DNA from: an uncultured Candidatus Saccharibacteria bacterium
GTDB lineage: Bacteria; Patescibacteriota; Minisyncoccia; RBG-13-40-8-A; JAUWHN01
Reading direction: 5' to 3'
DNA length: 47,797 nucleotides
Assembly: GCA_964426965.1 (NCBI GenBank)
Contig: CAYRSI010000001.1
Coordinates: forward strand, 1 to 47,797
Below the pieces are notes generated by a model, which saw only the letters and a list, made by a program, of their open reading frames with translations, was not told where the DNA came from and did not search any database. Of the stretch, positions 3,162 to 29,251 are shown piece after piece; within the stretch, counting starts at the first letter, position 1; every line of letters starts with the position of its first letter. The translations under genes and the position numbers were made by a program.

Positions 3162-4001
3162 CTACCTTTTTTTCTTTTTCATTCTTTTAATTATAAACTT
3201 ATTTGAATACTTTTTCTTGTTTCTCGTTTTAACTCCGTAGGCTTTTTTGCCCCAAGGAGTCTTTGGTCCCTTGAGTTGACCTACTGGGGATCTTCCTTCT
3301 CCGCCACCATGAGGATGATCAACTGGATTCATTGCTACTCCTCGAACAGCTGGTCTTCTACCCAACCAACGAGAACGGCCAGCTTTACCCAAGTTAATAA
3401 ACCTATGTTCGGACTTACTTAGAGAGCCAATGCTAGCCATAGCATTCTCAGGAATCATCCTAATTTCTGAAGAAGGCAGCGTCAAATGAACATAGCCGCC
3501 CTCAATTGCAGTTACCTGAGCGCTGACACCAGCAGAACGAACAATCTGCCCTCCTTTCCCTGATATAAGTTCAACATTATAAACAAGCGTACCAACTGGC
3601 ATATTTTTTAAAGGCATTCTGTTGGCTGGTTTTAGAGAAACCTTTTCGCCGGTAATAACTTCATCTCCTACTTTTAAATCCCTGGGTGCTAAAATATATC
3701 TTTTTTCTCCATCTTTATAAGTAATCAAAGATATAAAAGCCGACCTATTTGGGTCATACTCAATAGACTCAACTTTTGCAGGAATATCAAATTTATCTCG
3801 TTTAAAATCAATTATCCGATACTTCCTTTTGTGACCGCCTCCTTGATGTCTAACTGTAATTCTCCCCTGCCTGCTTCTTCCTGCTCGTTTCTTCAAGGAT
3901 TTAACAAGTGGTTTATGGGGTTTACTAACAGTTAAATCTTTTTTGTAATCTATCCCGGTCATTTTTCTGCGGCCAGGAGTTGTGGGTTTGTAGATCTTCA
4001 T
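3162..4001 (-). CDS. rplB: 50S ribosomal protein L2
   Basis: 279 aa with the [16 protein letters not shown] motif. Confidence 0.97.
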
Positions 4002-4105
4002 GTTCGCTTCGCGAACGGTTGACCGATCGCCTTTGGCGATCTTGGATGATCATTCGCTTAGCTCATTTGGATGATCAACCGCTTCGCGGTTTTGGTTGAA
4101 GTGGA

Positions 4106-4156
4106 TTATTTTATTAAAAATTTCCTGTATGCTTGAAGCTTGAAAAATAATTTATC
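4106..4156 (-). pseudogene. 3'-terminal remnant of a four-helix-bundle gene (last 16 codons plus stop)
   Basis: Translates to DKLFFKLQAYRKFLIK*, identical to the C-terminus of the 1103-1405 protein. All 8 nucleotide differences between the two are synonymous. Confidence 0.85.
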
Positions 4157-4338
4157 TAAGGTCTACTTTTTTTCTTCTTCCAATCCCTAATCAAAATATC
4201 GTGCTTTCGGCCGCCGAAGATGATTTCTAGTTTTTGACGTTCGCGCCAGCCGAATTTTTCTATTAATCTTTTCGGTAGGTTAATTGAATAGCTGTGGCTA
4301 CTCACTTTTTGTAATTTTCTAACAAATTTTTGTGCCAT
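4156..4338 (-). CDS. AbrB/MazE/SpoVT-type DNA-binding protein, copy 1 (60 aa)
   Basis: MAQKFVRKLQKVSSHSYSINLPKRLIEKFGWRERQKLEIIFGG... has a swapped-hairpin-like pattern (S-x-x-[IV]-x-[LI]-P-K-x-[LI]). Start set at ATG 4336-4338; the longer track ORF reads through the operator repeats. Confidence 0.75.
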   Translation of the reverse strand: MAQKFVRKLQKVSSHSYSINLPKRLIEKFGWRERQKLEIIFGGRKHDILIRDWKKKKSRP

Positions 4339-4345
4339 ATTTATA

Positions 4346-4389
4346 GTATATACGATAGTATATACGTTCGTATATATGTGCGTATATAC
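4346..4389 (-). promoter_or_regulatory. Phased array of palindromic octamers GTATATAC (x3 perfect plus 1 degenerate, 12-bp period), a putative operator/promoter of the AbrB-like gene
   Basis: GTATATAC at 4346, 4358 and 4382, and GTATATAT at 4370. It ends 8 nt before the ATG, and there is no SD. Confidence 0.6.
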
Positions 4390-4472
4390 GATCCATTTCA
4401 ACCATTTCAACCAAGCGAACGAAGTGAGCGATCAACCAAGGTCGCCGCAGGCGACCGATCAACCAATTCGAC

Positions 4473-4925
4473 CTAATGTGGCATAATTTCGATTTTTTGC
4501 CCCTTTTCCAATGTCACTATTGCCTTTTTATAACCAGTTTTAAAGCCTTCAATGCCTCGAAGCATTCTCCTCTTTCTATGAACATTGATTATGTTAACAT
4601 CTCTTACCCTTACTCCGTAAAGATTCTCAACGGCTTTCTTGGTTTCAATTTTATTGGCTTGAGGATAAACTTTAAACACATATTTATTTTCCTCAGTTAA
4701 AACAGTGGCTTTTTCACTAATATGCGGCTCTTTTAAAATCTTATAAATTTCCCGTAAATCTTTTTTCTTTATGGGTGGCCGTTTTACTGATGGCTTTTTC
4801 GCCCTGAGGGCGACCGGCCGTAGGCCGGTAACTTTCTTCGGTTTTTTGGCTGGTTTTTTCTTTAGTTTCTCAACCTTCTTCGGTTTCTTTTTAAATCTTA
4901 ATTTAAATTTTTTAAATAATGACAT
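4473..4925 (-). CDS. rplW: 50S ribosomal protein L23 with a ~55-aa Lys-rich N-terminal extension
   Basis: The C-terminal 95 aa is L23 (ILKEPHISEKATVLTEENKYVFKV...AIVTL). Confidence 0.93.
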   Translation of the reverse strand: MSLFKKFKLRFKKKPKKVEKLKKKPAKKPKKVTGLRPVALRAKKPSVKRPPIKKKDLREIYKILKEPHISEKATVLTEENKYVFKVYPQANKIETKKAVENLYGVRVRDVNIINVHRKRRMLRGIEGFKTGYKKAIVTLEKGQKIEIMPH

Positions 4926-13612: not shown

Positions 13613-13671
13613 GGATTATTATTAAGGATTGGGAGAAATAAACTCTACGTAACTTAATTTAAATTTAATCA

Positions 13672-13705
13672 TTCCGTATTTAATCCGATCGAGATAAATA
13701 CGGAA
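13672..13705. repeat. 34-nt hairpin TTCCGTATTT-N14(CGATCG)-AAATACGGAA, copy 1
   Basis: 10-bp arms. It is the reverse complement of the copy at 14348-14381 except for 2 nt. Confidence 0.85.
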
Positions 13706-13740: not shown

Positions 13741-14304
13741 ATGCCAATTAAACTTCCTGTTACAGAAAAATTTCTTTGGGGGCTGTTTAATTTTGTAGAT
13801 GCAGCTGAAGAAATATTAAACTTTTTTATAACTGATCAACCCTATGGATTCAGAAGACTTGAACAATTCAGCTGGCCTGAAATTAAACTCTTTCAGAGTA
13901 ACTGGGAATTTCAATGCAAAAAAAAGAAAAAGAATTTTGCCAAATTGGTTTATGATCTTAAGCAGGGCGGATATATTAAAACTATTAAAATCAAAAATGA
14001 TTCAGCTGTTATGCTTACGCCTAAAGGAATAGATAAAGTTTTTACTATAAAAATGAGACTGGCAGATAAGAAACGAAGGATAGATAAAAAATGGCAGATG
14101 GTTCTTTTTGATATTCCGGAAAAGAAAAGAAAGCAAAGGGATATGTTTAGAAAAAATCTTCAATATTTAGGCTACAAAAAACTTCAAAGAAGTATCTGGG
14201 TTTGCCCATATGATGTGTTAAATGAAACAAAAGATTTGATTAAAAGATATAGGCTTGAGCCGCATGTGGAATTATTATTAGTTAAAAAAATTGGTCTTGG
14301 CTAG
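13741..14304 (+). CDS. PaaX-like regulator (winged helix plus PaaX-C / Cas2-like ferredoxin fold)
   Basis: WQMVLFDIPEKKRKQRDMFRKNLQYLGYKKLQRSIWVCP matches the PaaX C-terminal domain pattern. The N-terminal part has a wHTH-like segment. Confidence 0.7.
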   Translation: MPIKLPVTEKFLWGLFNFVDAAEEILNFFITDQPYGFRRLEQFSWPEIKLFQSNWEFQCKKKKKNFAKLVYDLKQGGYIKTIKIKNDSAVMLTPKGIDKVFTIKMRLADKKRRIDKKWQMVLFDIPEKKRKQRDMFRKNLQYLGYKKLQRSIWVCPYDVLNETKDLIKRYRLEPHVELLLVKKIGLG

Positions 14305-14347
14305 ATAAGCTCAGATAGTATTTATTCTATTTTATGAAAATATTTAA

Positions 14348-14381
14348 TTCCGTATTTATCTCGATCGGAAAAAATACGGAA
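14348..14381. repeat. 34-nt hairpin TTCCGTATTT-N14(CGATCG)-AAATACGGAA, copy 2 (inverted)
   Basis: See 13672-13705. The two copies bracket the PaaX-like gene. Confidence 0.85.
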
Positions 14382-26734: not shown

Positions 26735-26859
26735 GTAGAAGCAGATTTGCGCCGATCTTGTGCCTTCGGCAATACGCTGATATACGCTGAATAAATTTGA
26801 CATCTGCGTTGTTCTGCGTATTTCGCGAAGCGAATCCAATCTGCGCGTATCTGCGATTA
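26735..26859. repeat. rpsU|yqeY spacer built from CGCAGA/ACGCTGA words and GNA-loop hairpins
   Basis: TGCC-TTC-GGCA (26761-26771), TTCGC-GAA-GCGAA (26822-26834), ACGCTGA x2, CTGCG x4. Confidence 0.7.
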
Positions 26860-27078
26860 TTATTTAAGTAACCCTAATTTCTCCATTCTCTCTCTCTCCT
26901 TTCTAATTTTCTCCCGACGTAAAGCATCTTTTCTTCGTAAATTTTTACTCCTTTTCCTTTTTTGAAATCGCGCCTTTCGAGCCGACAACAAAATCCCGCT
27001 TAACTGAACCTTGCGGGAAAAACGCCTTAACATTCCACTGGTGCTTTCTCTTGTTTTTTTTCTTACTTCAACAGCCAT
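26860..27078 (-). CDS. rpsU: 30S ribosomal protein S21
   Basis: Start set at ATG 27076-27078 after GGGAGGAA. MAVEVRKKTRESTSGMLRRFSRKV... Confidence 0.9.
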   Translation of the reverse strand: MAVEVRKKTRESTSGMLRRFSRKVQLSGILLSARKARFQKRKRSKNLRRKDALRREKIRKERERMEKLGLLK

Positions 27079-27150: not shown

Positions 27151-27471
27151 CTAATGCCAGCCGCCGAGCAAATGTAAATGCAAATGATCGACTATCTGGC
27201 CGCCTCTTCGACCAACATTAAAATTTAATTTATAGCCATGGGAAATTTTTTGCTGCTTTGCTATTTTTTTGGCTAATAAGAATAAATCGCCTATGAGGTC
27301 TTTGTGTTTTTCTTTTAAATCATTAAATGAACTAATATGAACCTTGGGAACTAATAAAAGATGAATCGGGGCTACTGGGTTAATATCCTTAAATGCTATA
27401 AAATTAGCGTCTTCATAAACAATATCAGACGATATTTCTTTATTAATGATGTTGCAAAATATACAATCCAT
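27151..27471 (-). CDS. HIT-family (histidine triad) protein
   Basis: HLHLHLLGG motif; 106 aa. Confidence 0.92.
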   Translation of the reverse strand: MDCIFCNIINKEISSDIVYEDANFIAFKDINPVAPIHLLLVPKVHISSFNDLKEKHKDLIGDLFLLAKKIAKQQKISHGYKLNFNVGRRGGQIVDHLHLHLLGGWH

Positions 27472-27566
27472 ATTAGCTCGCTTCGCGAGCGGTTGACCAG
27501 TCGCCTACGGCAACTTTGGATGATCGGTCCGACGGCCATCGGACCTTGGATGATGGATGAAATGGA

Positions 27567-27603
27567 TTACTTTATTAAAAATTTCGAAATGATATTTTTT
27601 GTA
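27567..27603 (-). pseudogene. four-helix-bundle gene remnant with internal deletion (5' 19 nt fused to last 5 codons plus stop)
   Basis: 27567-27584 matches 1103-1120 (KFLIK*). 27585-27603 matches 1444-1462 (the KKYHFE region) with 1 mismatch. Confidence 0.75.
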
Positions 27604-27644
27604 CATAGAATTGACAAATCTATCTCTTTTTCTCTTTCATAGAT

Positions 27645-27821
27645 TTATTTCTTTTTCTTCTTCCAATCCTTAATCAAAATATCATGCTTTCGGCCGCCGA
27701 AGAGAATTTCTAGTTTTTGACGTTCGCGCCAGCCGAATTTTTCTATTAATCTTTTCGGTAGGTTAATTGAATAGCTGTGGCTACTCACTTTTTGTAATTT
27801 TCTAACAAATTTTTGTGCCAT
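27645..27821 (-). CDS. AbrB/MazE/SpoVT-type DNA-binding protein, copy 2 (58 aa)
   Basis: Only a handful of nucleotide differences from the 4156-4338 copy over ~170 nt, by eye. Start at ATG 27819-27821. Confidence 0.75.
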   Translation of the reverse strand: MAQKFVRKLQKVSSHSYSINLPKRLIEKFGWRERQKLEILFGGRKHDILIKDWKKKKK

Positions 27822-27828
27822 ATTTATA

Positions 27829-27860
27829 GTATATACGATAGTATATACGTTCGTATATAC
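27829..27860 (-). promoter_or_regulatory. Phased GTATATAC array (x3, 12-bp period)
   Basis: GTATATAC at 27829, 27841 and 27853. One 12-bp unit fewer than copy 1. Confidence 0.6.
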
Positions 27861-27919
27861 GAACCATCTCAACCAAACGAACGAAGTGAGTGATCAACCA
27901 AGCGAAGCGATCAACCAAT

Positions 27920-29251
27920 TCACCCCTTAGCAAGTCTTTTTTTCACCTCTTTAATTACTTTATTAAATGACACTGTTTCCTGAACGCCTGATTTCATGTC
28001 CCTTATAATAATACTATCTTCTAATGCTTCTTTTTGCCCAAGAATCAAGGCAATGTCAGCCCCTAATCTATCAGCAACCTTGAGTTGAGATTTTATGCTC
28101 GGCTTGCTTAAGGCTTCGGCCACTTTCAAACCTCTGCTCCGCAATTCTTCAAATAATTTAAGGCTCTTCCTCCGAGCCAAGTTTCCTAATTGAACTAAAA
28201 ATATCTTGGGCAAAGCTTCCTGGGGAATTTTTATATCCTTAGCTTTTAAAACGGAAATTATTCTTTCCATCCCTCCGGCTATTCCTACGGCTGGCGTTGG
28301 CTTTCCTCCCAAAAGCTCAACTAATCCATCATAACGACCACCGCCAGCTAATTCTATTGAGTTCGGCCCCTCTAATTTAAACTCAAAAACAGTCTTTGTA
28401 TAATAATCTAATCCCCTAACCAAATAAGGATTAAGGATATAAGGAATCTCTAATTCGTCAAGAGACTCTAAAACCTCTTTAAAATGATTATGACATTCGT
28501 CGCATAAATAATCAATTGCCTGAGGAGCATTGCCGGCTAACTGTCTACACTTTTCTTCTTTGCAGTCAAGAAGACGAAGAGGATTTGTCTTTAGGCGTTC
28601 TCGGCAAAAACGACAGAGTTTTCTGGCTTGCTTTCGGTAATAGCTAGTTAAAAGTTTTTTGTAATCAGGTCGACACTCAGGACAGCCAATGCTGCTAATC
28701 TGGAGGATGACTCCTTTAATGCCTAATTTTTTGAAAATAAGAGAAACGAGTTGAATAAGTGAGACATCGTTGATGGGAGTTGCATCTCCAATAACTTCAA
28801 AATTAAGCTGATGAAACTGGCGAAAGCGACCGGCTTGAGGTTTTTCATGGCGGAAAAGCGGGCCAATAGAAAATAACTTAACTGGTTGAGGCCGATTCTT
28901 CATTCCGTGCTGAATATAAGCTCTAACTACGCTGGGAGTGAATTCTGGACGAAGAGCTAAATGATCTCTTCCTTTAGTGTGAAAAGCGTACATTTCCTTC
29001 TGAACAATATCAGTGGATGTGCCCGTTCCTTTCATAAATAACTGAGCATCTTCAAAAATAGGAGTATTAATAGCTGAAAATCCATAGGCAGTAGCTAATT
29101 GTTTTGCCACCCCCCTAACTCGTTCCCAGTATTTCTGCTCTTTTGGCAAAATATCAAAAGTCCCCTTTGGCGCTTGAAATTTCATCTTTCGCGAAGAGGG
29201 TTTTGATGGCGTTATTTTTTTTGTTGTTTTTTTTCTTTTTCCTCTTGGCAT
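27920..29251 (-). CDS. hisS: histidine--tRNA ligase (possible Lys-rich N-terminal extension)
   Basis: FQAPKGTFDILP, RPEFT and GGGRYD motifs. The first ATG is at 29249-29251; the conserved core begins at MKFQAPKG (ATG 29185), so the start is uncertain. Confidence 0.92.
   Translation of the reverse strand: MPRGKRKKTTKKITPSKPSSRKMKFQAPKGTFDILPKEQKYWERVRGVAKQLATAYGFSAINTPIFEDAQLFMKGTGTSTDIVQKEMYAFHTKGRDHLALRPEFTPSVVRAYIQHGMKNRPQPVKLFSIGPLFRHEKPQAGRFRQFHQLNFEVIGDATPINDVSLIQLVSLIFKKLGIKGVILQISSIGCPECRPDYKKLLTSYYRKQARKLCRFCRERLKTNPLRLLDCKEEKCRQLAGNAPQAIDYLCDECHNHFKEVLESLDELEIPYILNPYLVRGLDYYTKTVFEFKLEGPNSIELAGGGRYDGLVELLGGKPTPAVGIAGGMERIISVLKAKDIKIPQEALPKIFLVQLGNLARRKSLKLFEELRSRGLKVAEALSKPSIKSQLKVADRLGADIALILGQKEALEDSIIIRDMKSGVQETVSFNKVIKEVKKRLAKG

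Follow-up and report, generated by a model that had tools for sequence, protein, structure and literature searches.

Three cassettes in operon spacers

The DNA analyzed here (the window; 47,797 nt from an uncultured Candidatus Saccharibacteria bacterium, GC content 36.5%) carries the str/S10 ribosomal-protein operons together with other housekeeping genes. Within its minus-strand operons lie three inserts of 450-550 nt, which separate rpsC from rplP (1010-1561), rplW from rplB (4002-4472), and hisS from HIT (27472-27919) and are referred to below as copies 1, 2, and 3, respectively. As had been claimed in a prediction made earlier from the sequence (the original prediction), all three share one architecture. 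Along the transcript, the stop codon of the upstream gene is followed after 1-9 nt by a 5' arm, the cargo, a 3' arm, and a terminal hairpin (GYTCGC-GAA-GCGARC in all three), and then, after 0-4 nt, by the ATG of the next gene. The cassettes do fill their spacers from stop codon to start codon, but this is not the special property it was first thought to be, since any insertion into a spacer of 1-2 nt would do the same.

The inverted arms that enclose the cargo are 60-90 nt long and hold three or four repeated words of 8-10 bp, at a spacing of 25-27 bp and in inverted orientation. The 5' arm consists of three words of the TTGGTTGA(TC) type with GC-rich modules of 7-17 nt between them, while the 3' arm contains the complementary words CCAYTTCAWCC, GATCATCCAA, and GGTCAACC (the last being absent from copy 1), separated by GC hairpins. 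The features, all on the minus strand, are as follows; bit scores are those of the covariance model described below.

Copy 1, 1484-1561: 5' arm, after the rpsC stop codon TAG (1562-1564), which lies in the loop of GTTCGAG-TAGTA-CTCGAAC
Copy 1, 1103-1465: cargo, a PF05635/TIGR02436 four-helix-bundle gene of 120 codons with start codon ATA
Copy 1, 1029-1102: 3' arm (68 bits)
Copy 1, 1014-1028: terminal hairpin GTTCGC-GAA-GCGAAC, then TAAC (1010-1013) and the rplP ATG (1007-1009)
Copy 2, 4393-4472: 5' arm, after the rplW stop codon TAG (4473-4475), matched by the model on the plus strand (69 bits); order GTCGAA, TTGGTTGATC, hairpin GGTCGCC-TGC-GGCGACC, TTGGTTGATC, GCTCACTTCGTTCGC, TTGGTTGAAATGG(TTGAAATGG)
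Copy 2, 4339-4392: CGTATATAC palindromes, with a TATACT-ATAAAT box, immediately upstream of the AbrB-like gene and its ATG
Copy 2, 4156-4338: cargo, an AbrB/MazE-like open reading frame (ORF) of 60 aa (PF04014 E 2e-3, below the cut-off)
Copy 2, 4106-4163: PF05635 3'-end remnant, the last ~57 nt of the gene, ending in LDKLFFKLQAYRKFLIK and the stop codon
Copy 2, 4017-4105: 3' arm (95.6 bits); order TCCACTTCAACCAA, AACCGC-GAA-GCGGTT, GATCATCCAA, ATGAGCTAAGCGAAT, GATCATCCAA, GATCGCC-AAA-GGCGATC, GGTCAACC
Copy 2, 4002-4016: terminal hairpin GTTCGC-GAA-GCGAAC, abutting the rplB ATG (3999-4001) and identical in the orthologue L178
Copy 3, 27860-27919: 5' arm, after the hisS stop codon TGA (27920-27922)
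Copy 3, 27645-27821: cargo, an AbrB/MazE-like ORF, in a module 98% identical to that of copy 2
Copy 3, 27567-27606: PF05635 remnant, in which the first 8 codons (ATG TAC AAA AAA TAT CAT TTC GAA) are joined to the last 4 (FLIK and the stop codon)
Copy 3, 27491-27566: 3' arm (95 bits)
Copy 3, 27476-27490: terminal hairpin GCTCGC-GAA-GCGAGC, with C-G in place of U-A; TAAT and the HIT ATG (27469-27471) follow

The word TTGGTTGATC, with at most one mismatch, occurs 14 times in the window versus 3.7 times expected, a count that none of 100 shuffles reaches, and 11 of the 14 occurrences fall within the six arms. The hairpin GYTCGCGAAGCGARC is present exactly three times in the window, each time 0-4 nt before the ATG of rplP, rplB, or HIT. 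Furthermore, a covariance model trained on the 3' arms and then run over both strands of the window scored 68-96 bits on the minus strand, at the three 3' arms, and 29-69 bits on the plus strand, at the three 5' arms; its sole further match (E 0.31) overlaps the 3' arm of copy 2 itself. Because the matches fall on both strands, the arms are true inverted repeats, and there are exactly three copies in the window. Thus, the complementarity that had been claimed between 5' and 3' words is borne out, and a scan of this kind, which had been proposed as a check, recovers the arms but no additional copy in the window. When folded, the arms of copy 2 pair end to end (-154 kcal/mol, z = -9.5). The stem of copy 1 also closes (z = -5.0), and that of copy 3 (z = -4.7) closes partly.

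The arms are rich in GATC, which is found 13 times in 512 nt of arm sequence versus about 2 expected; however, the idea that every core word contains it does not hold for TTGGTTGAAATGG and GGTCAACC. No intrinsic terminator was found on the sense strand of the cassettes and no promoter on that of the arms, and the counts in the scanned regions do not exceed the shuffle expectation. A search of Rfam (E up to 1) gave no family match in or near the cassettes, only a chance snoRNA match inside rplP. The exact three-word DNA pattern had 0 matches in metagenome_contigs, and its 8 matches in viral_contigs were set aside as irrelevant coding tandem repeats (three inspected).

The genes rplP, rplB, and HIT had been singled out in the original prediction for their lack of a Shine-Dalgarno site. 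This distinction is not upheld: such sites, strong and of the GGAGG type, are found at 14 of 49 ORFs, clustered at 18.8-21.9 and 31.9-45.7 kb, and are missing from every str/S10 gene of the window and from all but a few of the housekeeping genes, so that their use is bimodal.

Cargo genes

The cargo of copy 1 is a clear member of PF05635 (E 2e-34, 118 bits, cut-off 33.8; TIGR02436 E 2e-31) and is related to the solved structure PDB 2gsc (E 1e-24). Homologues of this bundle protein start with MYKKYHFE, and copy 1 reads ATA where they have ATG. A four-helix-bundle gene had been foreseen in all three cassettes, but it is present only in copy 1; copies 2 and 3 carry the AbrB/MazE-like ORF plus short bundle-gene remnants. 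Relatives, which are contigs traced through close homologues with 80-93% identity to the bundle protein and are given here by locus labels, include an orthologue of copy 2 (L178) in which the bundle gene is intact.

The AbrB-like ORF matches PF04014 only weakly (18.4 bits, cut-off 24.7), and 10 of its 33 homologous clusters have a precomputed PF04014 label. When it was considered as half of a toxin-antitoxin pair, no recognizable toxin was seen to adjoin it, the partner being the bundle gene or nothing. Its best match among solved structures (E about 0.14, human otulin only) is unrelated and was dismissed. In the search with the PADLOC defence models, the lone match, to PycC (14 bits, E 0.005), was not significant and was dismissed as well. 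The AbrB-like gene is always accompanied by three to four CGTATATAC(G) palindromes, and 6 nt separate its ATG from a -10-like box (4339-4392 and 27822-27859 in the window, 1440-1500 in L187, 1430-1500 in L188, and also in L179). These palindromes and the box are probably an operator and promoter, an arrangement that suggests autoregulation and, possibly, a leaderless transcript. In L187 and L188 the module stands alone, outside bundle-gene cassettes, while L179 has the AbrB module and then the bundle gene between its 5' and 3' arms, an order that is taken to be ancestral.

Some relatives have an extra small ORF (69-106 aa) on the reverse strand (L011 1891-2100, L099 2027-2347, L180 1010-1252, and L183 1742-2011). 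These reverse-strand cargo ORFs have a strong Shine-Dalgarno site, with a TTGACA-type -35 box in L011 and a terminator-like hairpin in L099, and they matched nothing in Pfam or PADLOC. Neither the cargo nor the ORFs of the window include a transposase.

Filled and empty junctions in relatives

Comparison of orthologous junctions, which had been suggested as a check on the original prediction, showed that a given junction may be filled in one contig and empty in another.

rpsC-rplP: filled in the window and also in L011, where the words and the terminal hairpin are unchanged and TGAT and ATG follow; empty in L099 (GAA TAA GT ATG)
rplW-rplB: filled in the window and in L178 (intact bundle gene, arms almost identical); no empty version given
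rpsQ-rplN: filled in L099, L179, and L180 (hairpin, then TAAT, CAAT, or AGAT, and ATG); a different, cargo-less foldback in the window
rplB-rpsS: another element starts in L178; empty in the window (1 nt)
rplV-rpsC: a PF05635 cassette with unrelated arms in L011; empty in the window

The empty junctions measure 1-2 nt (TAA GT ATG in L099, TAA TT ATG in the window). Further cassettes are located between glycosyltransferase genes (L016, L100, L101, and L181) and between rpmI and rplT (L183). Given that the terminal hairpin is absent at empty sites and present at four junctions, it belongs to the element rather than to the target. The junctions compared show no consistent repeat of the sort expected from a target-site duplication. 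In four of six cases the 4 nt before the ATG read as a stop codon plus one nucleotide (TAAC, TGAT, TAAT, and TAAT), and these may be the old stop codon. Translational coupling through an upstream ORF that ends at the downstream ATG was considered and rejected as inconsistent, the small ORF of copy 2 being out of frame. In copy 1 and L011, the 3' arm happens to contain no stop codon in the rplP frame after a GTG; the empty site of L099 shows that the ATG is the true start.

Several other spacers hold related sequences. Cargo-less foldbacks fill the rpsQ-rplN and rpsS-rplV spacers of the window (minus strand, 103-176 and about 2786-2857) and are built from 7-8-nt words that are repeated in tandem opposite their complements (TAGCTTG four times, then AAAAGCTA four times); analogous TACAAAT/ATTTGTA foldbacks occupy rpsC-rplP and rplN-rplX in L179 (140-218 and 2299-2380). 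These look like miniature cassette arms. The element of L178 that starts directly after the rplB stop codon (2805-2849) is of the same family as the cassettes (GATC GCTTCGC TTGGTTGAGATGG TTGAAGTGG ACGTA...). In the rpsU-yqeY spacer (26800-26860, minus strand), repeated ACGCAGA words and a hairpin, ATTCGC-TTC-GCGAA, resembling a cassette-arm module may be a scar.

Conservation and age of the cassettes

Four-fold sites are 40-62% identical between the window and its relatives, in host genes and bundle gene alike. Synonymous sites are thus saturated, indicating that the insertions are old and that the cassettes have diverged for about as long as their hosts. The suggestion that the cassettes may be mobile finds support on an evolutionary time scale only, over which junctions are filled or empty among relatives, but it has to accommodate old insertions and a window without a transposase. 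The bundle protein retains 87-94% aa identity between the window and relatives (the L011/L099 pair included), compared with 66-84% for the flanking ribosomal proteins, and second codon positions of its gene are 95-97% identical; judging from these alignments, it is under strong purifying selection.

The conservation of the arms matches or exceeds that of the ribosomal-protein genes next to them. Between copy 2 and L178, the nucleotide identity is 94% for the 5' arm and 97% for the 3' arm (binomial P = 3e-7 for constraint on the latter), while the adjacent rplW and rplB are 79% and 80% identical, with four-fold sites at 50-52%, and the bundle-gene remnant lies below the arm, at roughly 80% by eye. 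Recent horizontal transfer was rejected as the source of the 97% identity because the adjoining remnant is less conserved and third positions of the bundle gene are saturated. The arms of copy 1 and L011 (82-88%) are less extreme, yet still at or above the coding level. Since the arms of copy 2 have been kept even though its bundle gene was lost, what is conserved is the fold beside essential genes, and the arms now appear to matter for the expression of the adjacent ribosomal-protein genes.

Compensatory changes in the arms

Covariation within the hairpins was tested in an alignment of eight 3' arms (90 cells, 13 pairs) against 500 shuffles. All of the cells (100%) are paired, and 6 of the 13 pairs have been altered on both sides. 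Neither the observed paired fraction nor the covariation score is attained by any shuffle, 12 shuffles attain the number of pairs changed on both sides, and controls in which the hairpins were slid drop to 23-37% paired. The terminal hairpin likewise varies between GTTCGC/GCGAAC and GCTCGC/GCGAGC, with a GAA or ATA loop. Thus, the earlier claim that the hairpins keep their pairing by covariation is sustained, except that GCTCACTTCGTTCGC and ATGAGCTAAGCGAAT, which had been counted among them, are not local hairpins but pair across the arms where a complement exists.

The words themselves drift as well. Among cassettes that encode bundle proteins with 80% or more identity to that of copy 1, the word pairs include TTGGTTGA/TCAACCAA, TTGTTCGA/TCGAACAA, TTGTACGA/TCGTACAA (the outer word pair within a single element, L181), and TTGTTTGA/TCAAACAA, and the arm words compensate at three word positions. 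That the words change while complementarity is kept points to selection for pairing; a trans-acting, sequence-specific DNA-binding protein would not tolerate such drift.

The PF05635 family at large

In a survey that drew on GTDB genomes and JGI metagenomes and took in Patescibacteria, Omnitrophota, Bacteroidota, Verrucomicrobiota, Binatia, and other groups, the 120 nt upstream were compared with the 120 nt downstream of the ORF for each of 143 distinct PF05635 genes. Strong flank complementarity (z < -3) was found for 43% of these genes; among 160 control ORFs of these loci, the share was 7.5% (Mann-Whitney P = 1e-19). In the strongest cases, on inspection, tandem short words face their complements, and the words are lineage-specific. 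For the 118 genes with both neighbours called, the orientation was ++ in 89 (75%), +- in 21, -- in 6, and -+ in 2, and the median gaps to the neighbours were 61 and 52 nt. No 23S rRNA motif was detected around about 180 sampled loci, in a motif screen without a positive control, and the window contains no rRNA.

Taken together, these comparisons suggest that the PF05635 family consists mostly of promoter-less, inverted-repeat-flanked cassettes in mRNA operons. A broader and rather doubtful proposal is that PF05635 marks a widespread, so far unrecognized class of mRNA intervening cassettes, promoter-less and sense-oriented in operons of many phyla, with fast-evolving but always complementary arms, whose stems would be processed or bypassed and on which the host genes, core ribosomal-protein genes of apparent candidate phyla radiation bacteria among them, would have come to depend; the intervening sequences (IVS) of rRNA would then be a special case.

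Relation to known elements

The 23S IVS of Coxiella burnetii has terminal inverted repeats and short tandem words before its ORF (GACAGAT, three to four times), and its stem is cut by RNase III (PMC4990558). The cassettes were originally described as IVS-like, and this is upheld by their PF05635/TIGR02436 cargo, which is ancestral, and by terminal inverted repeats able to pair into a long stem around it. Like the rRNA IVS with an S23p ORF (Leptospira, Coxiella burnetii, and others), they also have tandem words by the ORF, an ORF with a poor or absent ribosome-binding site that tends to decay, and a highly expressed host transcription unit. However, they lie in spacers of protein-coding operons rather than in a helix of 23S or 16S rRNA, and by location they therefore fall outside the rRNA class. 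In addition, their arms are longer and modular, there is an extra terminal hairpin at the next ATG, and the cargo of the mRNA cassettes is swappable (the AbrB-like module or the reverse-strand ORFs), and their excision is putative.

Correia elements are about 100-155 bp long and non-coding and occur in hundreds of near-identical copies with TA target duplications. They and similar co-transcribed miniature inverted-repeat transposable elements (MITEs), such as ERIC, BOX, and RUP, resemble the cassettes in being hairpin-forming inverted repeats in intergenic or operon positions, but the cassettes of the window are 450-550 nt long, carry genes, number three in 47.8 kb, are old, differ in their arms by module swaps, and have no clear target duplication. 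The Correia elements of Neisseria (also called NEMIS) are co-transcribed, and their inverted repeats are bound or cut by RNase III, altering the expression of adjacent genes (PMC2649163). Thus, the arrangement is not without precedent as an RNase III-bound or -cut foldback in mRNA (PMC2649163); its presumed novelty stands for PF05635 cassettes in mRNA operons, no description of which was found in the literature searched.

A more distant likeness, in the four-helix-bundle fold itself, is to the Avd proteins of diversity-generating retroelements. The Avd models score far below their cut-offs on the cargo of copy 1 (PF22296, 19.8 bits versus 40; NF033474, 21.7 versus 80), and no reverse-transcriptase domain or template/variable repeat pair was seen among the ORFs of the window.

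Proposed mechanism and alternative explanations

These findings have led to a model to which we give an even chance: the cassettes would be IVS-type foldback elements in mRNA operons, old and entrenched, whose arms close into a stem that is probably cut by RNase III. In this model, a promoter-less PF05635 gene, later joined or replaced by the AbrB-like module and enclosed by inverted arms, would have inserted long ago in the sense orientation into the 1-2-nt spacers of highly expressed operons, where it would be co-transcribed, as the sense orientation and the lack of terminators and promoters at the arms indirectly suggest. In the polycistronic RNA, the arms would close into a long, imperfect duplex with the cargo looped out. 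A double-strand-specific RNase, probably RNase III, would cut this duplex and split the operon transcript, and the terminal GC hairpin might then cap, insulate, or protect the 5' end of the downstream mRNA. As the downstream essential genes came to depend on the fold, the arms would have become entrenched whatever the cargo. By analogy, processing of the stem by RNase III is plausible. Any cut in the stem leaves a structured leader of at least 15-19 nt; consequently, the downstream gene would not be leaderless.

Several observations weigh against this model. The minimum-energy fold of the whole copy 3 spacer lacks the full closing stem. Sense and antisense strands fold about equally well, both for the copies in the window and across phyla (13 of 32 better in sense), and without a G-U strand asymmetry RNA pairing is not told apart from DNA hairpins. 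The extreme arm conservation is confined to the copy 2/L178 pair; the arms of the rpsQ-rplN trio are 76-91% identical over their aligned parts, with module swaps, which is still at or above the coding level. In addition, RNase III (rnc) was not found in a search that covered the ORFs of the window, and an ATG that lacks a Shine-Dalgarno site and is immediately preceded by a stable hairpin does not look like an obviously good place for initiation.

The equal folding of both strands would also fit an explanation that we consider unlikely, namely that the arms are DNA-level transposon ends (a MITE with cargo, its transposase or recombinase being encoded elsewhere) and that RNA structure is incidental. 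Inverted, repeated words at 25-27-bp spacing are like multi-site transposon ends, and such an element would leave junctions filled in some relatives and empty in others. However, a fixed DNA-binding specificity does not allow words that vary yet stay complementary among elements with bundle proteins at least 80% identical, nor does this explanation sit well with the strong preference for the sense orientation (89 versus 6), with arms kept long after insertion, as the saturated synonymous sites indicate, with the lack of a consistent target duplication, or with the lack of a transposase in cargo and window.

Another possibility, also improbable in our estimate, keeps the RNA stem but leaves it uncut, so that the upstream stop codon and the downstream ATG would be juxtaposed and ribosomes would re-initiate across the insert in a shunt-like manner, preserving translational coupling. 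The operon genes have no Shine-Dalgarno sites and are normally 1-2 nt apart or overlapping, the distances from stop codon to stem (1-9 nt) and from stem to ATG (15-19 nt) are alike at four junctions, and the conservation of the arms does not depend on the cargo. Nevertheless, the base of the stem would be unwound by a ribosome that has halted at the stop codon, the conserved words and internal hairpins would be left unexplained, and no bacterial case is known to us in which ribosomes re-initiate beyond a structured insert of 450-550 nt.

Repetitive extragenic palindromic (REP) sequences are single imperfect palindromes of 35-40 nt mobilized by RAYT transposases, and bacterial interspersed mosaic elements (BIMEs) are mosaic palindromic arrays in operons that are transcribed and thought to modulate mRNA stability. 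The cassettes might be host-beneficial elements of this type, stabilizers or decay barriers that set relative gene expression with the cargo as a passenger, and the conserved arms, together with the cargo-less tandem-word foldbacks in two other spacers of the same operon and in the L179 spacers, would be in keeping with this. We hold it to be quite unlikely: relatives function with empty junctions, a bundle protein under strong purifying selection is no mere passenger, and REPs have no enclosed cargo, two-arm architecture, or link to PF05635.

Equally hard to credit is the view that the cargo is itself the functional unit, with a pentameric bundle protein and an AbrB-like repressor binding their own word arrays, as DNA or RNA, in some regulatory, addiction, or defence role, so that the arms would serve for protein binding and not as a nuclease substrate. 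In its favour, PF05635 genes of many phyla come with word arrays, the words being lineage-specific; the bundle protein is strongly conserved; the AbrB module has its own putative palindromic operators; and the related Avd proteins bind nucleic acid in diversity-generating retroelements (the PF22296 and NF033474 matches being weak). Against it, the arms of copies 2 and 3 are intact and conserved although neither copy has a bundle gene, a nearly identical cargo lies between quite different AT-rich arms in L183, and no PADLOC match is significant.

The findings place an IVS-type cassette between essential ribosomal-protein genes, with non-coding arms that are conserved as strongly as those genes or more so and that persist after the cargo is lost. 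This is a candidate case of a selfish insertion that has become entrenched in the expression of essential genes, and it bears on operon expression in small-genome bacteria, apparently of the candidate phyla radiation type, in which Shine-Dalgarno sites are missing from the core genes. What the 23S rRNA intervening sequence protein family and the IVS elements do has been a puzzle for about 30 years, and the findings make concrete tests possible.

Other repeats in the window

A further gene enclosed by repeats is found at 13741-14304, where an ORF with a PaaX central Cas2-like domain is bracketed by two 35-nt hairpin repeats (13671-13705 and 14347-14381; ATTCCGTATTTA...TAAATACGGAA) that are 83% identical. 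In the block of genes with Shine-Dalgarno sites, there are intergenic repeats of 46-73 nt with 79-93% identity (43552-43731, 44799-44844, and 45678-45794), and the hairpin AAGGACATTSARTGTCCTT is present in three copies, at 45819, 46354, and 46565.

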